Origin: Candidatus Sericytochromatia bacterium
GTDB taxonomy: Bacteria > Cyanobacteriota > Sericytochromatia > S15B-MN24 > UBA4093
Direction of reading: 5' to 3'
Assembly (NCBI GenBank): GCA_036676985.1
Contig: JAKFBU010000007.1
Coordinates: forward strand, 1 to 64,000
DNA length: 64,000 nt
Below the pieces are notes generated by a model, which saw nothing but the letters and a program-made list of their open reading frames with translations, had not been told where the DNA came from and did no database searches. Position 1 is the stretch's first letter. Every line of letters begins with the position of its first letter. Position numbers and translations under genes: made by a program. This document shows, one piece after another, positions 45,086 to 61,079 of the stretch.

Positions 45086-46636
45086 TTACCTCACGGCCTG
45101 CTTGCACTTGCTGCAGCGGGAGCTGAGGCTCGAGAAAAGGGTCGCCCCGCAGTGGGGGCAGGTCGGCTTAGCGCTGGGACTCGCCGCAGCCTCGATAGCC
45201 GCAGGACTCTCGAACGGCAGGGCGATCGCCGGAACCTCCACCTCTGCGACGGCCGGCTTTTCCTCGGGCGCAATCTCGAAAGGCAGCTTGATCGCGGGCG
45301 CTGCCGCGATCGGCTCGGGCTCGGGGGCTTCGTCCGCCGGAACGATCTCGAAGGGCAAGGGCGCCGCGGCTTCCGGCTCGGGGACGACCTCGAAGGGTAA
45401 GGGAGCTACCGCTTCCGGCTCGGGGACGATTTCGAAGGGTAGGGGAGCCGCCGCTTCCGGCTCCGGGACGATCTCGAAGGGCAGGGGAGCCGCCGCTTCC
45501 GGCTCTAGAGCGGACTCTGGCTCTTCCGGAAGGATCGCGAAGGGCAGGGAATCCGTCGCGTCCGGCTCGTCGAGCTCGACGACGTTGGCCTCGGCGGCCG
45601 GTTCGGCCGCGAGGTCGAAGACGGGAGCGGCCTCCTCGACCGTCACTTCGAGCGTGAGGGGCTCGTCCGAGCGAACGATGGGCGCCTTCGGAGCCTCGGG
45701 CGCGAGCACCATGGTCTCGCCGCCGCCGGAGGGCGTGCCGTCCTCACCCGCGGTATCCCCTTCCTGCTTGCTCGCCAGACGCTTGCTCAAGAGGCTAGAG
45801 CCGATGCCCCAGCGCTTGGGCGCCTCCTCCGGATCGGCCTTGGCCTCGGCGGCCAGCGAGGGCACCGTCTTGAGCGCCACGGCGGGTGCTTCGACCTTGG
45901 GCGCCTCCTCCGCTGCGGGCTCCGCGAGGCCATAGCGCTTCAAGAGGACGGCCACGGGCAGCTCGGGCAAGGCGTCAAGCACGCGGGACAGGCTGTCGGA
46001 GCGCACGATGCGCTTGGCCTTGCGCAGCTCATGCTCGACGACGAGCAGGGCGCGCTGGTGCTCGAAGTAGGTGAGCCGCGTGGCTGGTAAGGAGTGGAGC
46101 TGGTCCTGGAAGAGGCTCTCGAGCGAGGAGAGGTGCTGCACGAAGAGCTCGTCGAGGGTCAGGCCGGGGATCTGCTGGACCCGTAGCGACGGGGGCTTGG
46201 TCGGATCGTCCGCCTCCTCGCTGTTGCCCGTGACGAGCGCCGAGAAGTCGTCGAACAGCGTGAAGAGCTCCACGTGGGCGGGCAGCCCCTGGCGCTCGAC
46301 GATGGCGGCATGGACCGGCTTTTCCTTGTGCACCAGGCCGCGGCAGTAGGTGTCGGGCCAGCCGGCGATGGCATAGTCGGCCACGAGGCGGAAGCCGAGG
46401 CGCTCCAGGTTGCCCGTCAGCCGGATGAAGCTCGGGAGGTTGGCCGGGGTGGCGTCGAGCGTCACCCGCTCGTACTCGAGCTTGTCTGGAGCGGGCGGCT
46501 TGCGGGCCGGAACGGAGCGGCGCCGGCCCATGCCCACGGTGAGGCTGAAGGGCAGCTTGCCCCCCGAGCGTTCGAATCCCTTGTAGGCGACGTATCCGAC
46601 GATCAGTACGCCCGCCAAAGCCAGCCGCAGGTCCAT
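45086..46636 (-). CDS. Membrane-anchored hypothetical protein with acidic LPF repeats and C-terminal zinc ribbon
   Basis: N-terminal TM; seven LPF motifs; CPHC-x9-CSKC. Confidence 0.7.
   Translation of the reverse strand: MDLRLALAGVLIVGYVAYKGFERSGGKLPFSLTVGMGRRRSVPARKPPAPDKLEYERVTLDATPANLPSFIRLTGNLERLGFRLVADYAIAGWPDTYCRGLVHKEKPVHAAIVERQGLPAHVELFTLFDDFSALVTGNSEEADDPTKPPSLRVQQIPGLTLDELFVQHLSSLESLFQDQLHSLPATRLTYFEHQRALLVVEHELRKAKRIVRSDSLSRVLDALPELPVAVLLKRYGLAEPAAEEAPKVEAPAVALKTVPSLAAEAKADPEEAPKRWGIGSSLLSKRLASKQEGDTAGEDGTPSGGGETMVLAPEAPKAPIVRSDEPLTLEVTVEEAAPVFDLAAEPAAEANVVELDEPDATDSLPFAILPEEPESALEPEAAAPLPFEIVPEPEAAAPLPFEIVPEPEAVAPLPFEVVPEPEAAAPLPFEIVPADEAPEPEPIAAAPAIKLPFEIAPEEKPAVAEVEVPAIALPFESPAAIEAAASPSAKPTCPHCGATLFSSLSSRCSKCKQAVR
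45340..45505. repeat. Coding tandem repeat, about 4 x 42 bp (PLPFEIVPEPEAAA)
   Basis: Repeated GCTTCCGGCTC(G/C)GGGACGA..TCGAAGGG units. Confidence 0.85.
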
Positions 46637-46829
46637 GGGCGCGGAGTGCCTCCGTATAGGTGTCAGCTGTCCTCTTTTACCCGGATTTCGAAGGGTCAAG
46701 CTACAGGGGGCATGCCGCGGGCCCCTCCAGCACAAAGATGTTTGTCGATCGTTGTCTTCTGGGTCGGTTGCTTGGGGTCCTAAAGTTGGAAGGACCATTG
46801 ACCCGTCGGACGTAAGAGAGGAGTCCCTC

Positions 46830-47399
46830 ATGATCGCATTGCACGGAGACTGGGACGCCGGCTACGCCATCCACACCTACAACCAGCCCGACGGCGCTCG
46901 GACGCTCTTGGGCGAGGCGATCTACCGGTACCAGTACCGCAAGCAATGGTACCTGGTCGACAGCCTGGCCCGCTGGGCGCAGGCGTTCATCCTCGCTACG
47001 CCGTCGATCAAGGACATCGACCTCCTCGTCCCGGTGCCGTCCAGCCGCGTGCTGTCGGACTACGACCCCTCGTCGCTGCTCGTGGACTGGGTCAGCCAGC
47101 TGACCAACATCCCGCGCGCCATCGGGATCCTCAACCGCTACGGGCTCATCTCCGAGTACTCGGAGCGCAGCGTCGACGGGTCCAGGGGCGGCATGAGCGT
47201 GGTCAGCCCCGAGGCGGTCAAGGGCAAGCGCATCCTCCTCATCGACGGGATCTACTGCTCGGGAAGCACGCTGGAGGCCGCCTCGAAGGCCCTGCGCAAG
47301 TGCGGGGTGGCCTCGGTGACGGCCCTCGTCTTCACCAAGATCGATCGCCATTCGCTCGACTCCTATGGGTTCGCGCAATACGACCAGGGGGGAGACTAG
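46830..47399 (+). CDS. ComF-like type I phosphoribosyltransferase-fold protein with degenerate motif
   Basis: LLVPVPSS; GKRILLIDGIYCSGSTL where LLVDD..TSG.T is canonical; GAGGAG RBS. Confidence 0.75.
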   Translation: MIALHGDWDAGYAIHTYNQPDGARTLLGEAIYRYQYRKQWYLVDSLARWAQAFILATPSIKDIDLLVPVPSSRVLSDYDPSSLLVDWVSQLTNIPRAIGILNRYGLISEYSERSVDGSRGGMSVVSPEAVKGKRILLIDGIYCSGSTLEAASKALRKCGVASVTALVFTKIDRHSLDSYGFAQYDQGGD

Positions 47400-47600: not shown

Positions 47601-47690
47601 TCCCCTGAACGGCAAGAAGGGTTACCCTTCTGCTTGAGACACGACCGCCCCGGGCCATCGGCCTGGGGCGGTCGTCATTTGCTGTTTTGA
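47601..47690 (+). ncRNA. Candidate small RNA
   Basis: TTTACT-N17-TAGCAT promoter (47567-47595), internal hairpin, strong terminal hairpin; no ORF. Confidence 0.3.
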
Positions 47691-47734
47691 GCCTGGGGAC
47701 GGGTAGCGCGGCCCTTGGTGCCCTAGTTCGGGGG

Positions 47735-49507
47735 CTAGGCCATGCCCCAGCGCGTGGTGGGCAGGGTGACGTAGAAGGTCGTGCCCGCCTCCGGGCGGCT
47801 CGTGAAGCCGAAGAGGCCGCCGTTGGCGTTGACGAGCTTCTTGACCTTGGAGAGCCCGCGGCCCTCGCCCGGAACCTCGGGGTGCCCCCGGAAGCCCGGC
47901 TCGCCGATCTTGGCCTGCTGGTCGATGGGGATGGGGGCGTCGTTGGAGACGTAGATGGTGGCCCAGCCATCCGACAGGGCGCACCAGAGCTTGATCTCGG
48001 AGGCCTCGGGGGCGTACTTGTTCGCGTTGTCGAGGAAGTGCGTGACGATCTCAGCGAGCTCCTTGTCGGCGATGGGCAACTCGACGGTCTCGGGGGTGGG
48101 GGAGAGCTCCAGGTGCTGCGAGCGCGCCGCGAAGCGCGGCAGGAACTCTTCCGAGATCCGCTCGAGCAGGGTACCCACCTCCGTGGCGGCGGGATTGGGC
48201 ACGCCCTGGGTCTGCTTGACCCAGGAGAGCTTCTCCTTGAGGAAGTTCGAGATGAAGGTGATCTGGCGGTCGATGGCGGAGACGCCGAACTGGATCTCGG
48301 CGTTCTCCTCGGCCATGAGCTGGATCTCCTCGTTGATCAGGCTGATGGCCTGGGTGGAGTTGCGCAGGTCGTGGACGATCTGCCGGATGAGGGCCTCGCG
48401 CTCCTTGGCCACCTCCTCGGCGAGGATCTTCTCGGAGTGGCTGGCGGCTTCGCGCTGGATGAGGCGCTGGTTCTCGATGGCGAGCCCGGTCAACTCCGCG
48501 ACGCCGACCAGGAGGGCATGCTCCTCTTCCATGGGCACGTAATCGGCCGCACGCCACAGCAGCACGAGCACGCCGTTGGGCGTTCCCTGGTGCAAGAGGG
48601 GAATGGCCGAGCATTGCACCGGATCGTCCGTCTTGAAGAAGGTCCGCTCCGCCTCGGAGAGGGTCTCCAGGTGGAACTGCGGCACGTAGAGGGGGGTTTC
48701 GCCCTGGAGCGTGCGCATCAGGAAGCTGTCGGGCACCGCCGGCCAGCGGGCGGCCGCCGTGTTGGGGCCGATCTCGGTGCTCGCGGCGAGCGTGAAGTGC
48801 TGGCTCTCGTCGAGCAGGAAGACGCCCGCGAAGTCGGGCTGCAGGAACTGCCAGGTGACGTCCACCGCATCCTGCAGGACCGAGGGGAGGTCCAGGTCCG
48901 ACCGCATGGCCTTGGCGACCTTGAGGAGGATCTCGGCGCGCTGGCGCAGCCGCACCTCGTGCTCCAGGTAGCGCGAGCTGACGATGGCGTTGGCGGCGAG
49001 GTCCCCGATGGCGCGCACCAGCTTGAGGTCCGTCTGGTCGAAGCGACGGGCGGGGTCCATGCTCGAGACCGAGAGCATGCCGAGCATGTGGCCGCGGCTC
49101 TGGATGCGCACGCTGATGTAGGAGTGGATCCCGAGGTCGAGGACGTAGCGGGGGTGGATGGCCGACAGCCCCTGGGAGTCGGCCAGGAGCAGGTCCTCGC
49201 CGGAGGTGAAGGCGCGTCCTGTCGCGTGCCGGACCAGCGTGATGGGGAAGTCCCGGCACAGCTGGCGCAGGTGGTCCTCCAGGCCCGGCTCGGGCGAGAA
49301 GATGGCGAACGGCTCGAGATGGGTCATCTCCGCGTCGGGCACGAACAGGCAAACCATGCCGCCCAGGGTCTCGCCGGTGGCGCGCAGTACCCGATTGACC
49401 GCCGTCGTCAAGTCGGCCGGGTCGTTGAAGAGGGAGCTCGTCGTCGCCAGCAGGTCGAGGTCGCGCTTGTAGCGTTCGATGAGGAGCTGTTCCGTTGTTT
49501 CCATCAT
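47735..49507 (-). CDS. Cytoplasmic GAF-GAF histidine kinase
   Basis: Two GAF domains; VHDLRN H-box, LDNANKY N-box, GRGLS; atypical G1 box (SNDAP). Confidence 0.85.
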   Translation of the reverse strand: MMETTEQLLIERYKRDLDLLATTSSLFNDPADLTTAVNRVLRATGETLGGMVCLFVPDAEMTHLEPFAIFSPEPGLEDHLRQLCRDFPITLVRHATGRAFTSGEDLLLADSQGLSAIHPRYVLDLGIHSYISVRIQSRGHMLGMLSVSSMDPARRFDQTDLKLVRAIGDLAANAIVSSRYLEHEVRLRQRAEILLKVAKAMRSDLDLPSVLQDAVDVTWQFLQPDFAGVFLLDESQHFTLAASTEIGPNTAAARWPAVPDSFLMRTLQGETPLYVPQFHLETLSEAERTFFKTDDPVQCSAIPLLHQGTPNGVLVLLWRAADYVPMEEEHALLVGVAELTGLAIENQRLIQREAASHSEKILAEEVAKEREALIRQIVHDLRNSTQAISLINEEIQLMAEENAEIQFGVSAIDRQITFISNFLKEKLSWVKQTQGVPNPAATEVGTLLERISEEFLPRFAARSQHLELSPTPETVELPIADKELAEIVTHFLDNANKYAPEASEIKLWCALSDGWATIYVSNDAPIPIDQQAKIGEPGFRGHPEVPGEGRGLSKVKKLVNANGGLFGFTSRPEAGTTFYVTLPTTRWGMA

Positions 49508-49648
49508 GGCGCTGATTCTACTTGGGAGCGATGGTTCGCCGCAAGCAACGAGGCGCCGCCGGGCCTGCGACCGCCCGAGGGCCCGGAGTCGGCCTTGACA
49601 GGGGATCTTCCACCCCTTATAGGTAAGGGCGGCCCCGGGAGGTGCCGC

Positions 49649-50095
49649 ATGCCGTCCGATAGGCCTTTCGCCCTCAACATCCTCGACCTTGCCGCCCGCG
49701 CGATCGCCGCTCAGCTCCTGCTCGGCGCGCCCTTCGGTTTGGCGGACTTCGGGACGGTGCTCGCCAAGACCGGGTCTCCGGCGATCGCCTGGGCCGTGGC
49801 CTTTGCCTTCGGCTGTTACCGAGCCATCGGCCTGCCAATCATCCTGGGCGGGGCGCTCATCGGGGCGACGGATCGGCCGGGCCGCCTGTGGGCGGTGGCG
49901 ATCGCGGGCCTGCCCACCGCGGTCATAGCAGGCGGCTACCTGCCCCAGATCCTCGGCGTCGCCAAGAGCTTCTCGCCGGGCAAGACGCTCGGGGGCATCC
50001 TCGCCCTGTGGCTCCTGGGGACGATGGTGGGCATGGTCGGTTACGGCCTCGGACGCATCTACAGACAATCGGTCAGAAAGCAGGTGGACTCATGA
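49649..50095 (+). CDS. Hypothetical four-TM membrane protein
   Basis: GGAGG RBS; TTGACA-N17-TATAGG promoter at 49595; ATGA overlap with purB. Confidence 0.7.
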   Translation: MPSDRPFALNILDLAARAIAAQLLLGAPFGLADFGTVLAKTGSPAIAWAVAFAFGCYRAIGLPIILGGALIGATDRPGRLWAVAIAGLPTAVIAGGYLPQILGVAKSFSPGKTLGGILALWLLGTMVGMVGYGLGRIYRQSVRKQVDS

Positions 50096-53058: not shown

Positions 53059-53181
53059 GCTTCCCCCCTCTAGAGGGGGGGCCAGGGGGGGTTCTCCTCC
53101 CGTGCATGACCATCCCGCGATTTGCCTACGAAGAGGCGATTAATAAGGCGGACCCCCCCAACCCCCCCTCTAGAGGGGGGG
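53059..53181. repeat. Two back-to-back half-elements of subfamily A
   Basis: Right end C6-TCTAGA-G7-CCA-G7-TTCTCCT, then left end AAGGCGGA-C7-AA-C7-TCTAGA-G7. Confidence 0.8.
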
Positions 53182-53242
53182 CGATCAATTGGGGGAAGGT
53201 CATTGGGGGAAGGCCACTAGCCAGGTGGCTGGGTGGTGAGCC

Positions 53243-53743
53243 CTAGTGGCTCGGCGTGGCCGTCCCCACTTCGGGCAGCCCGAGGGCTTCCCACTGGTGG
53301 AGGCCACCCTGGAGCGCGTAGACCTGCCGGAAGCCGAGCCCTTTCAGTTGAGACGCCGCACCGGCGCTCTTGTGCTCGTTCGGTCAGGTACAGTACAGGA
53401 CGATGTGCCGATCCTTCGGCAGCGTCGACGCCTGCTGCGCGACCTGCTCGAAGGGCAGCCAGATCGCCCCCTTGATGTGACCCCGCTCGTACTCGCCCTG
53501 CGTGCGGACGTCCACGAACACGGGGTTCGGGAGGTCCTTCGCCTCTTCCGCCGTGACCCGGCGGATGTCCGCATGACGGTTGTCCGGAGCCTGCTGCGTC
53601 GGCTGCGACCCCAGGAAGGCCGCCGCGAACACCTGCGCCGCCCCCGGAGGCACGGGCGGCAAGAGCAAGTAGCCGACCATACCGGCCAGGACGGCCCCGG
53701 CCGACAGGCATGCGTTCAAGACGGGTGGAAACTTCTCGGACAT
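53243..53743 (-). CDS. Membrane-anchored rhodanese-family selenoprotein (C-x-U), 166 aa
   Basis: VDVRT..EY..GHIKGA...IVLYCT-[TGA 53384-53386]-PNEHKSA...VYALQGGLHQW..LGLP; the rhodanese domain completes only if UGA is read through; SECIS-like hairpin follows. Confidence 0.85.
53351..53370 (-). promoter_or_regulatory. Bacterial SECIS-like hairpin
   Basis: AGAGCGCC-GGUGC-GGCGUCU; G-rich apical loop about 21 nt 3' of the UGA. Confidence 0.65.
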
Positions 53744-53979
53744 GGCTCGATTCTCGCATCTAGGCGCCGAAAGGACCAGAGGAAGCGCCCCCGGCCCGCG
53801 CCAGGGACCATATACCCGGACCCCGTGCCCTCTACCACCCGGGCTCCCTACGGATCTCCCGACCTGCGGCTTCACCAAAGCTTAGTCCACCATTTAACAC
53901 GTTCTTACCGATTCGCCCTGCTCCGCCCCGATAGAGAACCTGGTGCCCCGTGGCGCCTGGCGACCCATTGGAGGAGACG

Positions 53980-55602
53980 ATGGCCGGTACGGTCGGAGCT
54001 TCCAACCTGATCCCCCCCAGCGCGAGCCGCAACGCGGCGCCGGCGCCTGCCGCCACGTCCCGCCAGCCCTGGATGACCGACGCCCGGCGCGAGGCCATCA
54101 TCAAGTCGTCGGACATGCTGCGCGATCGCTTCGTCCGCAGCGGCGCGACCCTCAGCGAGCTCGATCGCACCTTCTCCAACCCGGCCGCCGACACCTGGAC
54201 CCGCACCTCGGCCGTCGCCGGCGCCTCGCGCGAGCTCGGCAACACCCTGCGCACCGTCGACGCCCTCAACGATCAGCTCGAGGTGGTCATGGGCGACTCG
54301 CCCGTCTACCAGCGCCTCGCCAAGAGCGGCTCCGGCCAGGCCCTCGTCAACACCACCCGCGTGGCAGCTCGCACGATCGCCCCAGTGGCGGACGTCGCAG
54401 GGGCCATGACCGACATGTCCCGCGCCCAGGCCCAGGCCGCCCGGGACTTCAGCGAGATGCAGCGCGTCCTCGCCGATCCCACGGCCACCACCAGCGTCAA
54501 GATCGCGGCCACCGCGCGCGCCACCCAGAGCGCCTCCACCTACGTCAACCAGCAGCGAGCGGCCATCAAGGCCATCCAGGCGGCGGACGCCAACTACCTG
54601 AGCAACCCCACCTACCAGCGCCTGACGGCCAACGTGCGCAGCTCGCGCTCGGCCCAGCTCCTCGACAAGATCGACAATGTCCTGACGCCCACCACCATGA
54701 AGGTGGTCCAGGCCGCCGGCACGGGCGCCGGCGTGGTGCTCGGCGTCATCACCCTGCCCAAGCTCGTCGAGAGCGTGAAGAGCAGCTATCAGAACCTCAA
54801 GACCACCCTCGACGACGGCATGTCCACCCAGGACCAGAAGCTCGACGCCGTCGCCGACTTCTCCCGGGCCAGCGCCGGCACCATCCAGGGCGTGCAGGGC
54901 CTGCGCATGTCCGTCACGGGGCTCGTCGACATGGCGGCCGAGAGCCGCCTGCTCGGTTCGCTGGTCGGCCGGGTGAGCTCGGCAGGCGTCCTCGCCCGCA
55001 CGGGCACCTGGTTCACGCGGATCATGGGCGTGCTCTCGCCCATCGCGGACGTGGGCATGCTCATCGCCGACGGCGTGAAGCTCCGGACCACCATGAAGGA
55101 CCCCACGGCGACCTTCTGGACCAAGGCCCGCGCCATCCTCAACGTCGGCCTCGACGGCCTCAAGCTCGCCACCTGGCTCATGCCGCAGACCGCGGCCCTC
55201 CGGCTCGTCTACATGGGCGCCTCCTTCTTCCAGCTGGGCCTGGCGACCTACGACTTCGGCCACTCGATCGTTCCTGCCCTCAAGAAGCTCGGCAACGCCG
55301 TCCTGCATCCCGTCGAGACCGCCCGGGCCATGGGCCAGGCCATCGGCGAGGGCATGGTCTACGTCTCGAACAAGGTCTACGGCGCGGCCGCGGCCGTGGA
55401 GTGGGCCGTCTTCCATCCGGGAGAGGCCATGCGCGCGGTGGGCGCCAAGGTGTCCGGCTTGGTCGCGGGCGTCAAGGAGGTCGGCGGCGTCCTCAAGCAG
55501 TCGGCCCAGGTCGTTGACAACAGCGCGAAGGGGATGGTATCCCCCCCTGCAGGAACCGCCGCGACCCCCGTGCCGGTGGGCGCGTTACCCGTCACGCCGT
55601 AA
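53980..55602 (+). CDS. Hypothetical alpha-helical protein with disordered N-terminus and hydrophobic Gly/Ala-rich segments
   Basis: GGAGGAG RBS; strong codon bias; no Sec signal; no recognisable catalytic motif. Confidence 0.75.
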   Translation: MAGTVGASNLIPPSASRNAAPAPAATSRQPWMTDARREAIIKSSDMLRDRFVRSGATLSELDRTFSNPAADTWTRTSAVAGASRELGNTLRTVDALNDQLEVVMGDSPVYQRLAKSGSGQALVNTTRVAARTIAPVADVAGAMTDMSRAQAQAARDFSEMQRVLADPTATTSVKIAATARATQSASTYVNQQRAAIKAIQAADANYLSNPTYQRLTANVRSSRSAQLLDKIDNVLTPTTMKVVQAAGTGAGVVLGVITLPKLVESVKSSYQNLKTTLDDGMSTQDQKLDAVADFSRASAGTIQGVQGLRMSVTGLVDMAAESRLLGSLVGRVSSAGVLARTGTWFTRIMGVLSPIADVGMLIADGVKLRTTMKDPTATFWTKARAILNVGLDGLKLATWLMPQTAALRLVYMGASFFQLGLATYDFGHSIVPALKKLGNAVLHPVETARAMGQAIGEGMVYVSNKVYGAAAAVEWAVFHPGEAMRAVGAKVSGLVAGVKEVGGVLKQSAQVVDNSAKGMVSPPAGTAATPVPVGALPVTP

Positions 55603-58398: not shown

Positions 58399-58698
58399 TT
58401 GGAAGTGCGCAACGTCATGGAGGCCCTGGTGGACGGGGCGCTCGACGAGGAGCTCGGTGGATCGCCCGGGGTGTGCGCCTGCGATCGCTGCCGGATCGAC
58501 ATGAAGGCCTTCGCCCTCAACAACCTTCCGGCCCGCTACGTGGTCGACGACCCGGGGGCCGTGCGGGCCACCCTGGAGACCCTGGTGGCTCCTTTGCGGG
58601 GAGACGTCCGCTACAGCGTCCGGACGGCCATCCAGATGGTCGGCGCCCGACCGAGGCACGCGCGATCGCTGGTGGGACGCCGGGTCCAGCATGATTGA
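58399..58698 (+). CDS. ComFB-family protein (late competence development; cyclic-dinucleotide receptor family)
   Basis: NVMEALV...CACDRCRIDMKAFALNNLPARYVV...V..RPRH; TTG start after AGGAGG. Confidence 0.88.
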   Translation: MEVRNVMEALVDGALDEELGGSPGVCACDRCRIDMKAFALNNLPARYVVDDPGAVRATLETLVAPLRGDVRYSVRTAIQMVGARPRHARSLVGRRVQHD

Positions 58699-58728
58699 AG
58701 CGGGGAGCCCCCAGGGGCTCCCCGCTTT
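58698..58728. terminator. Bidirectional terminator
   Basis: AAGCGGGGAGCCCC-CA-GGGGCTCCCCGCTTT. Confidence 0.8.
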
Positions 58729-58730
58729 GC

Positions 58731-61079
58731 TTATTTCCCGTTCCCGCCTTTGCCCTTCGGATTCGCCGATTTGGCTTGAGTGGATGCGGAGCCGAGCTCC
58801 TTCACGAGGTCCCGGACCTCCTGACCGATGGTCGAGGGTCCGCCCTGTTTGGAATCGGCGCCCGCGGCGGTGACTTGGCCGCCATGTGCGCCCTGTTTGT
58901 GTGGCGAGCCGTTGTTCGGGTTGGAAATGGTACCGGTCACCTGAGCGATCGAGGGCCGGGATTGCAGGGCTTGGGTCGTTCGGAGCCTCAAGCGAACGGA
59001 GGTCCCGCTGATGGCTTGGCGCGAGCCGCCGACGCTCCGGTCCGAGGCGAAGCTGGACGCCCCGGCTTTCAGCGGAGCGGACTCGACCAGCTTGACCGGC
59101 GTCAGGTCCTGGCGCCACGCCCGGAGGGGGACGGGTACCGACTTGGTGGCCTCCCGGGTGCTCCCGCCGTCCCGCCGCCGCTTCTCGCCCGTCGCCGTCC
59201 ACGGGGAGTAGGCATCGCTGATATCCTGGCCGGGAACGGTGCTGACGAGCACCGAGTAGGTGCTGGTGCGGGTCCTAGGCTCCAAGACCGTGACGGATCG
59301 GGTCGCCCACTCGGTGGAGGTGACCGTTTCCATCAAGGGGCCGAACACGGGCTCCCTCATGTGGCGAATGGTCGATACGCCGCCGTTCGAGTCCACGGCG
59401 ACGGAGGTGCCGCCATAGCCACCTTTGGACGGGCCCATGGCACCGGTCGTCGGGGCCTTTCCACCTCCCGTCGCGGTTTTCGAGCCACCCGCCTGAGTCC
59501 TGCCGCTCGGGGTCGAGGCCGCCAGGTACTTGTTCTCGCAGCGAATGGTCGGATCGTCGTGGGTGTGGGAGAACTGGTACGTGGAGCCCCGGTCCAACCA
59601 TCGAACGACCGTCTTGACCGGGACCTGCTTGGTGACGAGGTGTGGCTTGGTGCTCCATTCCTGCCGGGTCTCGTAGTCGAGGACGGTGCTTTGCCGGGTG
59701 CCGACGCCGGCCGCGGTCATGGCGTCCGTGATGATCGGCATGCGGCTGGTATGGTGGCCCACGATCGTGTAGCCCTTCTTCATCTCGGGCTCGAGCAGGA
59801 CGATGCGGTCGGCGAGTTTGCCGAGCATGGGGCTGTTGGGATAGGTCGCCTCCTTTTCGGCGCGATTGGCCTTCGAGATCCGGGGGCTGTTGCTGGTCGT
59901 CACGGCGCGATAGCTGCACCCGATGCCGGGACAGTGATAGTGCCGCCAGAAGACCCCCTGGCCGACGCCCGTCCCTTGCAGATCGTCCGGTTTATCGGCG
60001 AACTGCTCCAGTTGGAGGGAGAACGTGGCGGGAGTGGTGACGGTGACCATCTTGGTCGAGGTCTCGGTATACGCGACCTCGCGCGTGGCCTGGACCTGCG
60101 TGTCGTAGGCCAGGTAGTTGTCGAGCTTGACCTTCACCTTGGCTCCCCACCAGTGGGTCCATGCCGCGTGCCGCAGGTCCCCTTCGAACTCGAGGTAGTG
60201 GGTGCCGTTGGCCGAGGTCACGACACACGTCCCCCCGATTTGCGGCTCGGACCCGACCCGGCCCCAGCCCTGTTGCGTGTAGGAGAGCTTGGTCTTCGAT
60301 CCGTCCGTGAAGCGCATGGAGACGTAGTTGAGCCGCAGATCGGGACAGTTGAGCGTCACCCCCGCTTCGTCCGTCCACATGGTCACAGTGCCCCAGTCCC
60401 TTCCCGTGACGTGATCGATCATGCGCCCGTCGTAGACGTTGCGCCGGGTGGTCGTGAACGATTCGGTCCGGGTCTTGGTGACGGTCTCGTCCTGCGGCAC
60501 CGTCTCCGTCTTGGTGTAGTGCTGCGTCGTGTAGATCGGCTGCGGCTCGATGCTGTAGGTGGAGGTGACGGTCTTGAAGACGGGCACCTGGACTTCGACG
60601 AGCTCGGGCTCGGTGCTCAGCTCCTGGACGGGGACCGTGACGGGCTTTTCGGCGCTCGTCGTTACCCACTCGCCGACCTCCTTTTCGACCGGCACCATGA
60701 CCGTCGAGGACGTGCTCTGCTCGGCGTACGTGCGTAGCTCGTAGCGTTGCGTGGACGTCGTCTTGGTGCGCTGCTCCTTGGCCTCCTGGGGGTAGGTGGT
60801 CGTGCGCTGGCGGTAGTCGTCCATCCGGTATTCCTGGAACTGGAGGAGCGAGGGACTGGGTTGGCTCTTTTGGACCCAGGTCCGCGATCCGACCAGCTCC
60901 CAGGGACCGGTGACGGTCTCCGTCGTTTGGATGGGTTGCCAGCGAACCTCCTGGGCCGTCGACTGGCTCTGGTCGAGGTTCACGCGGACGGGGGCCGGGG
61001 CCGCCCAGGCGAGGCCGGGGGCGATCGCGAGCGTGACGCACAGGAGCAAACCGGGAGCGCGGAAAAGGCTTGGGCGCAT
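58731..61079 (-). CDS. Large secreted Thr/Val-rich hypothetical protein (782 aa)
   Basis: GAGGAGG RBS; signal peptide ending LAWA; long extended T/V/K/E tracts. Confidence 0.75.
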   Translation of the reverse strand: MRPSLFRAPGLLLCVTLAIAPGLAWAAPAPVRVNLDQSQSTAQEVRWQPIQTTETVTGPWELVGSRTWVQKSQPSPSLLQFQEYRMDDYRQRTTTYPQEAKEQRTKTTSTQRYELRTYAEQSTSSTVMVPVEKEVGEWVTTSAEKPVTVPVQELSTEPELVEVQVPVFKTVTSTYSIEPQPIYTTQHYTKTETVPQDETVTKTRTESFTTTRRNVYDGRMIDHVTGRDWGTVTMWTDEAGVTLNCPDLRLNYVSMRFTDGSKTKLSYTQQGWGRVGSEPQIGGTCVVTSANGTHYLEFEGDLRHAAWTHWWGAKVKVKLDNYLAYDTQVQATREVAYTETSTKMVTVTTPATFSLQLEQFADKPDDLQGTGVGQGVFWRHYHCPGIGCSYRAVTTSNSPRISKANRAEKEATYPNSPMLGKLADRIVLLEPEMKKGYTIVGHHTSRMPIITDAMTAAGVGTRQSTVLDYETRQEWSTKPHLVTKQVPVKTVVRWLDRGSTYQFSHTHDDPTIRCENKYLAASTPSGRTQAGGSKTATGGGKAPTTGAMGPSKGGYGGTSVAVDSNGGVSTIRHMREPVFGPLMETVTSTEWATRSVTVLEPRTRTSTYSVLVSTVPGQDISDAYSPWTATGEKRRRDGGSTREATKSVPVPLRAWRQDLTPVKLVESAPLKAGASSFASDRSVGGSRQAISGTSVRLRLRTTQALQSRPSIAQVTGTISNPNNGSPHKQGAHGGQVTAAGADSKQGGPSTIGQEVRDLVKELGSASTQAKSANPKGKGGNGK

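Follow-up and report, generated by a model that had tools for sequence, protein, structure and literature searches.

We find that the 64,000-nucleotide stretch of DNA analysed here, which we call the window and which is contig C7 of a 4.68-Mb, 79-contig assembly of a Candidatus Sericytochromatia bacterium, carries on its minus strand a rhodanese gene in which an in-frame UGA codon is very probably read as selenocysteine (Sec). The comparative evidence makes it highly likely that the selenoprotein gene is real and was overlooked by gene callers, and that it belongs to a kind already known, the rhodaneses with a Cys-x-Sec (CxU) motif. For the working of the protein we favor, with a probability of about 50%, the reading that the Cys-x-Sec pair undergoes redox cycling or carries sulfane sulfur, in an enzyme for redox chemistry or sulfur relay outside the cytoplasm that is wired to haem in some of its relatives.

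Conservation of the UGA codon and its hairpin

The window had been read before from its letters alone, and this first-pass annotation described a TGA codon that ends the annotated rhodanese frame and is followed by an in-frame tail; both are present as described. The frame begins with an ATG at 53743, its N-terminus MSEKFPP recurs in an orthologue of the same genus, and after the TGA it stays open for 46 codons (PNEHKSAGAAS...TPSH) until it reaches a TAG. The standard list of open reading frames (ORFs) closes the protein at the TGA, and the protein database likewise holds the window product as a 119-aa fragment (P0002) and three close relatives as entries of 115-120 aa. That the tail is the second half of a rhodanese domain, as had been proposed, is borne out by a Pfam match that runs across the TGA (Table 1). 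Compared with the orthologue of the same genus, 36 of the 46 tail residues are identical and the ratio of nonsynonymous to synonymous substitution rates (dN/dS) is 0.43, against 0.36 upstream of the TGA. The TGA is not an assembly slip: contigs covering the site in three public runs from three studies show no other letter, with neither TGC nor TGT as an alternative. One of these runs, X2, comes from the same study as the possible source sample, and a further run, X7, has no coverage of the TGA.

To follow this codon through related organisms, we searched the read-through protein against 41 genomes (its own and 40 relatives), inspected 20 loci and aligned 17 of them (alignment A1), leaving out a Cys form (L023), a classical rhodanese with the loop CRSGGRS (L037) and a distant form with YCGCP (L038). 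The counts given here refer to the inspected loci among the matches listed, next to which there are 108 further matches. The column of residue 120 holds TGA in 13 and a Cys codon in four of the 17 aligned relatives, and the sequence that follows the TGA can be aligned in all of them. The TGA forms come from 13 genomes, 10 genera and 3 families. This agrees with the earlier placement of the UGA on a Cys position, and the related rhodaneses with a YCxCPNE-like motif, which the first-pass annotation had given as background, do exist among the relatives (YCxCP[NDAE][ED] in L025, L029, L034 and L039). The gene therefore shows what is expected of a selenoprotein gene, an in-frame UGA aligned to Cys with conserved coding sequence on both sides.

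The TGA forms also follow selA in their distribution: of the 13 genomes in which a TGA form was verified, 12 have this gene. The exception, G006, in which selA was not found, has a completeness of 81%, and selA is present in the two other genomes of its genus. Three genomes without selA (G004, G007, G015) carry Cys at this position, and in family f6, where selA is found in none of 13 genomes, there is no TGA form among the matches listed. Two genomes, G024 and G027, have selA, yet their best match is a Cys form. Two wider searches add to the picture of the Cys forms and of rhodaneses at large. A nucleotide-pattern search of genome contigs found five loci, all of them Cys forms, including one from Sericytochromatia, two from Dyella and one from Burkholderiales; this search was unable to find Sec forms, because its pattern holds Cys codons at the Sec site. 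A profile of alignment A1 run against 1.84 billion representatives gave 85,470 matches, and each of the best 150 of these 85,470 has at least two rhodanese stretches, so that the top of the list, made up of multi-rhodanese proteins, is uninformative on the CxU/CxC subfamily.

Bacterial selenocysteine insertion sequence (SECIS) elements are outlined in PMC1088965 as stem-loops with a small, G-containing apical loop that lie directly 3' of the UGA within the coding sequence, and the window gene has such a stem-loop. RNAfold pairs 53369-53362 with 53358-53350; if the closing G-C pair opens, the loop becomes GGUGC and the hairpin reads AGAGCGCC/GGUGC/GGCGUCU, with its loop 21 nt after the TGA, which is the G-loop hairpin that the first-pass annotation had pointed out. 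The motif GCGCC-NGUGN-GGCG begins 19 nt from the U of the UGA. A core stem CGCC/GGCG with a loop of 3-5 nt containing G is formed at the same distance from the UGA in all 13 Sec forms, and a hairpin at that position is formed in none of the four Cys forms; one of these, L034, encodes the identical Ser-Ala-Gly-Ala-Ala peptide with different codons and has no hairpin. The hairpin core is invariant across the Sec forms compared, and the pairing is specific to its register: 80% of cells pair, a share that falls to 30-53% once the partner strand is slid by 1-3 columns.

The choice of codons points in the same direction. Among 12 Sec forms (L024 was excluded as a close relative of L022, and L025 is not counted here), the stem codons are fixed, with AGC for Ser at +6 in 12 of 12, GCC for Ala at +7 in 12 of 12 and GCG for Ala at +10 in 11 of 12, and among the 23 columns conserved as amino acids in these forms most other four- or sixfold degenerate sites use two or three codons. 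The motif GCGCC-N-GU[GU]-N-GGCG occurs 14 times in the genome on both strands, and four of these copies stand exactly 19 nt after an in-frame TGA, these being the four CxU rhodanese genes of the genome; a fifth copy lies 22 nt after a TGA that has no coding context.

We also observed that the depth of metagenome contigs peaks on a stretch of 42-60 nt containing the TGA and the hairpin (window 53347-53409), and that several foreign metagenome contigs match 53354-53395 only and then diverge from the window. Taken together, the peak and the short foreign matches indicate that the DNA sequence of the module of UGA plus hairpin has been conserved in those samples, whether among paralogues or in other organisms.

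Selenocysteine decoding in the genome and the phylum

The first-pass annotation had concluded from this one gene that the genome decodes Sec, and the genome search found the machinery: tRNA-Sec (75.2 bits against a cut-off of 47; called tRNA-SeC with anticodon tca by ARAGORN), selA (627 bits) and selB (381 bits), which are adjacent and lie on the contig that also holds tRNA-Sec, and selD (387 bits), all of them above their curated cut-offs. The GC content of contig C7 (66.7%) and of contig C62, which carries tRNA-Sec (65.8%), is close to that of the whole genome (67.3%), and the contigs concerned span 65.8-67.8%.

In-frame TGAs are also found at the classical catalytic positions of other proteins, namely in SelD itself (SGUASK), in an FdhA-like molybdopterin oxidoreductase (CARTUH) and in three peroxiredoxins (TPGU/TPVU), with further ones in a thioredoxin-like WUGAC protein and an AhpD-like CNYU protein. 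Three paralogous CxU rhodaneses share the hairpin of the window gene; one of them is apparently cytoplasmic, one has a signal peptide and one a lipoprotein signal. This brings the genome to at least 11 candidate selenoprotein genes, four rhodaneses included. At least ten other genes of the genome thus share the misannotation at TGA seen in the window, and since the database fragments of 115-120 aa end at this codon, metabolic reconstructions that draw on them lose the catalytic redox residues.

A further paralogue (C38:91942-92268) has Asp at the Sec position (YCADP) but retains the first Cys; this version may be inactive or may naturally have a single Cys. A second side observation concerns the tRNA gene. 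The intact tRNA-Sec lies at C62:9409-9501, and a partial copy of about its first 55 nt lies at C62:16072-16165, directly after selB (locus L053, 9409-16165). The roughly 6.5 kb between the two copies have a GC content of 47-59%, against 67% for the genome, and encode a tyrosine integrase with a helix-turn-helix domain, an NHL-repeat protein and a replication protein of the filamentous-phage type (Phage_CRI/G2P, 1e-24), which looks like a small mobile element integrated in the selC gene.

The first-pass annotation had considered the case that the host is a relative of Cyanobacteria, and it is one, a member of the class Sericytochromatia of the phylum Cyanobacteriota; a homologue of the window protein, P0006 (44% identical), is labelled Candidatus Sericytochromatia. 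PsaA/PsaB are found in 40 of 121 sampled genomes of Cyanobacteriota and were not found in 40 sampled genomes of the host's class nor in the genome of the window, indicating that the host is a non-photosynthetic member of the phylum. The window stretch is present in soil and groundwater metagenomes. Within the class, selA scores above the cut-off in 23 of 47 species genomes, and it was not found in a sample of 354 genomes from elsewhere in the phylum. A review describes Cyanobacteria as appearing to lack Sec (PMC9312934). We found no paper that links Sericytochromatia with selenocysteine, in a search that had the supplementary tables of selenoproteome papers, which might list such genomes, outside its reach.

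On this basis we put forward a broader picture, tentatively and as one possibility. Sec decoding may be a lineage trait of Sericytochromatia, present in about half of the species genomes and serving a dozen or more genes in what is apparently a soil or groundwater organism, and the exported Cys-x-Sec rhodaneses (four here, some relatives being fused to cytochrome c) could form a periplasmic module for selenol redox chemistry or sulfur relay that exchanges electrons with the respiratory chain. The presence of Sec in one non-photosynthetic class bears on the timing of the gain or loss of Sec around the origin of oxygenic photosynthesis.

Table 1. Coordinates of the CxU rhodanese gene, its parts and related loci (positions without a contig name are those of the window).
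Feature	Location	Strand	Remarks
CxU rhodanese selenoprotein coding sequence (putative)	53243..53743	minus	166 residues plus TAG stop (53243-53245), TGA read as Sec
UGA codon 120, probably read as Sec	53384..53386	minus	motif L-Y-C-T-U-P-N-E-H; PKDRHIVLYCT precedes the UGA
Cys118, partner of Sec120 (Cys-x-Sec)	53390..53392	minus	invariant in 17/17; kept in the Asp paralogue (C38)
SECIS-like hairpin	53350..53369	minus	5 bp, bulged U, 3 bp; apical loop G-U-G
Rhodanese domain, residues 67-153, across the UGA	53285..53545	minus	Pfam PF00581, 71.2 bits against gathering 22.2, E 1.1e-19
N-terminal hydrophobic segment (about residues 8-29)	53657..53722	minus	read as signal anchor or transmembrane helix
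CxU rhodanese paralogue, YCTU	C19:1140-1487		same hairpin 19 nt after TGA
CxU rhodanese paralogue, YCSU	C56:98799-99092		same hairpin 19 nt after TGA
CxU rhodanese paralogue, YCAU	C27:279397-279708		same hairpin 19 nt after TGA
SelD	C26:280471-281394
FdhA-like molybdopterin oxidoreductase	C27:47797-49065
Peroxiredoxin	C41:21442-21813
Peroxiredoxin	C23:185300-185674
Peroxiredoxin	C26:23094-23480
Thioredoxin-like protein	C23:238057-238404
AhpD-like protein	C38:152048-152296
Cytochrome c-fused orthologues	L031 (G013), L035 (G023), L036 (G017)
Runs with contigs covering the TGA	X2 record 3, X4 record 7, X8 record 19

The active-site loop and competing explanations

The read-through protein has a rhodanese fold. 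An AlphaFold2 model of the domain built on the 17-sequence alignment reaches a predicted local distance difference test score (pLDDT) of 90.9 and a predicted template modeling score (pTM) of 0.85, and Foldseek aligns it with the rhodanese structures 6mxv and 2kl3 (template modeling score 0.81, E 2e-9), the matches named 6mxv, Alr3790 and BH2092 scoring about 0.8. The N-terminal segment is hydrophobic, with the best 19-residue Kyte-Doolittle windows (1.7-1.8) starting at residues 8-13 and spanning residues 8-31. Orthologues have signal peptides at the same position (ending, for example, in ...LTAC, ...LGAC, ...IAAC or ...LPGC), which we take to be of the lipoprotein type by the lipobox consensus. 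Three orthologues continue after the rhodanese into a mono-haem cytochrome c domain at the C-terminus (CxxCH; PF00034 at 1e-10 to 1e-12, and also PF13442), and the window protein itself has no haem domain. Because c-type cytochromes are matured outside the cytoplasm, these fusions support a probable extracytoplasmic location of the rhodanese domain, and together with the lipoprotein-type signals they agree with the extracytoplasmic or membrane location that the first-pass annotation had derived from the N-terminus of the window protein.

The active-site loop, C-T-U-P-N-E-H-K-S, exceeds the canonical C-R-x-G-x-R-S by two residues. It has Asp or Glu at U+3 in 17 of 17 relatives and usually also a His. 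The loop C-X5-R is the active-site loop of rhodaneses of the Cdc25/Acr2 phosphatase or arsenate reductase type; here, the residue six positions after C118 is His, that six positions after U120 is Ser, and there is no Arg in the loop. Whichever of C118 and U120 corresponds to the canonical catalytic residue, the two are neighbours in the active-site cradle.

From these features we infer how the system would work. With a ribosome at UGA 120, SelB and Sec-tRNA would bind the hairpin, and Sec would be inserted by the SelA/SelB/tRNA-Sec/SelD system, with the hairpin sequence also encoding Ser-Ala-Gly-Ala-Ala, where the active-site helix starts. An N-terminal anchor would fix the product, a single rhodanese domain, to the outside of the cytoplasmic membrane, and the C118-U120 pair of this domain may cycle between selenol/thiol and selenenylsulfide or carry sulfane sulfur as Se-S-S(H), and in the fused forms electrons could pass to or from the c-type haem. 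A shortage of selenium would lead to termination at the UGA and to an inactive fragment of 119 residues. The sulfur/selenium transferase function put forward in the first-pass annotation is likewise one that we infer. Exported forms and cytochrome c fusions offer a concrete and testable hypothesis for the function of the family.

Two explanations dispense with Sec altogether. The TGA could be a nonsense mutation that leaves a pseudogene or a 119-residue product with a decaying downstream frame, and the gene callers and the short database entries described above do end the protein there. The TGA stands at the same column, however, in organisms of three families, the tail is under purifying selection and completes a Pfam domain, and the genome has the complete Sec machinery, which makes such a mutation very improbable. 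The UGA could also be read in some other way, by reassignment to Trp or Gly or by near-cognate insertion of Cys, since the frame is open whatever the TGA encodes. This is scarcely credible, because TGA serves as the stop codon of the family genes L022, L024, L026 and L030-L033 and of the organism's own paralogue on C38, the in-frame TGAs fall at catalytic Cys positions of redox families and track selA across genomes, and the genome has a dedicated tRNA with the anticodon UCA and an architecture of the Sec type.

The remaining two explanations accept the selenoprotein and differ on its chemistry. It may be an ordinary rhodanese sulfurtransferase that forms a persulfide or perselenide on one of the two residues while the second has no redox role; the fold agrees with this, the nearest characterised models are GlpE, PspE and sulfur carriers of the MoeB/MoeZ type, and the spacing between U120 and the helix equals the canonical spacing from Cys to Ser. 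We consider this possible but doubtful: C118 and the Sec/Cys column are both invariant in the 17 aligned relatives, suggesting that both are needed, the protein scores far below the cut-offs of the GlpE (41 against 102 bits) and PspE (34.8 against 102 bits) models, and its loop is acidic and not basic. Alternatively, the Cys-x-Sec-Pro-x-Glu-His loop may be a site for a metal or metalloid, such as periplasmic Cu, Hg, selenite, tellurite or arsenic species. It contains Cys, Sec and an invariant acidic residue, in most cases with a His as well, and lacks the basic residues of thiosulfate sulfurtransferases, a protein with a heavy-metal-binding domain adjoins L035, there is a weak match to ChrE, a rhodanese-family chromate resistance protein (36 bits against a cut-off of 120), and a title in the reference list of PMC13510729 links a rhodanese-like lipoprotein of Geobacter to selenite uptake. 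We nevertheless hold a metal site to be unlikely, because that protein is the one metal-related neighbour among 20 flanking ORFs from 10 relatives' loci, where no metal-resistance neighbourhood is conserved, the neighbours in the window are TetR, YceI and an ORF without assignment, and fusion to cytochrome c is easier to reconcile with electron transfer than with metal buffering.

Several observations count against the selenoprotein with a redox-active or sulfur-carrying Cys-x-Sec pair that we prefer. The whole case for a selenoprotein is built from comparative evidence. The hairpin shows no significant covariation (both partners vary in one of eight pairs, and the observed pairing is attained by 67 of 500 shuffles), its single-sequence fold is within chance (z = -1.23, with 27 of 200 shuffles folding as well or better), and 53200-53500 has no Rfam match with E up to 10. 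Its conservation is in part protein-level, because the stem codes for conserved residues; the case for the hairpin is made by its conservation in relatives and not by its fold energy. For the active site, the upstream register and the AlphaFold2 secondary structure (in model numbering, a strand at 57-60, the loop from C61, which is C118, and a helix from H67, which is H124) favor C118 as the canonical catalytic position, and the spacing to the Ser-Ala-x-Ala-Ala helix favors U120. The loop is acidic, unlike the basic loop of thiosulfate sulfurtransferases, and this argues against a simple thiosulfate or cyanide activity. Finally, no conserved neighbour gene in the window or in 10 relatives' loci points to a substrate.

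Neighbouring genes and relation to known systems

The neighbours of the rhodanese gene in the window are genes for YceI and a TetR regulator, and a 550-residue ORF. Among the flanking ORFs of the relatives, only TetR, within the same genus, and adenylosuccinate lyase, within the same family, recur, and this is synteny rather than a sign of a functional partner. A promoter scan showed no promoter-like site, and the sole terminator-like match lies inside the coding sequence and is no better than expected by chance. Between the convergent rhodanese and TetR genes, 53162-53181 forms a perfect 20-nt palindrome (seven C, TCTAGA, seven G), and on the minus strand the short sequence CCTTCCCCCAAT occurs just upstream of it as a direct repeat of two copies; the terminator scan passed over the palindrome because it has no T-run. 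The 550-residue ORF (53950-55602, plus strand) is divergent from the rhodanese gene. Pfam gave no match for it, nor for the ORFs at 47687-50095, 45086-46831 and 58695-60737; some of these ORFs may be spurious frames in DNA of 67% GC.

Predictions of rhodanese selenoproteins go back about twenty years. The table of a 2026 review lists five forms, including 'form 3, NF041203, CxU' (PMC13188914), a 2022 review places 'COG0607 form 2, CxU' under predicted selenoproteins (PMC9312934), and a variant with UxU is described from worm symbionts (PMC1976440). The word 'hidden', which the first-pass annotation applied to the selenoprotein, therefore holds for the gene callers that missed it, and does not hold for its kind, which these two reviews and the family model NF041203 already describe. 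In the review tables, the Cys-x-Sec rhodanese is not among the experimentally characterised selenoproteins, and PMC9312934 marks it as 'Predicted'.

NF041203 (rhodanese_LYCAU) is the best NCBIfam match of the window protein (83.1 bits, E 1.3e-23) and stands at the top of the tally for the aligned relatives, all 17 of which match it (best E-value 1e-24). Its L-Y-C-x-U motif is present as LYCTU in the window protein and exactly as LYCAU in the paralogue on C27. The curated cut-off of 115 bits is not reached by the window protein nor, in a six-frame search, by the copies of its own genome (62-78 bits), and the window protein is placed just outside the equivalog because its 83 bits fall short of 115. 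It shares with the CxU rhodanese of NF041203 a single rhodanese domain, a Sec two positions after a conserved Cys, homologues with Cys and a SECIS hairpin just after the UGA, and differs from it in having a membrane anchor, with orthologues that carry lipoprotein signals and, in three cases, a cytochrome c fusion. The published CxU rhodaneses, as far as those sources present them, come from Deltaproteobacteria, whereas the one described here comes from Sericytochromatia.

The window protein resembles PspE, YgaP and GlpE of Escherichia coli in its fold and its small single domain; YgaP is also anchored in the membrane, and the sequence and structure matches include chains of YgaP and PspE. These three proteins differ in that they lack Sec and have a single catalytic Cys, set in a canonical loop. 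There is also a likeness to MccSep, the polysulfide reductase of Geobacter sulfurreducens (PMC13510729), which as described there combines extracytoplasmic Sec, Cys and c-type haem in sulfur redox chemistry; on our side, haem is found only in the three fused relatives. MccSep is a pentahaem cytochrome and shows no homology to the window protein, so that the likeness concerns a possible way of working and not membership in a family. The CxU rhodanese is thus a known kind of selenoprotein, and what is new is its lineage, the architecture of a family that is exported and in part fused to cytochrome c, and the size of the selenoproteome to which it belongs.

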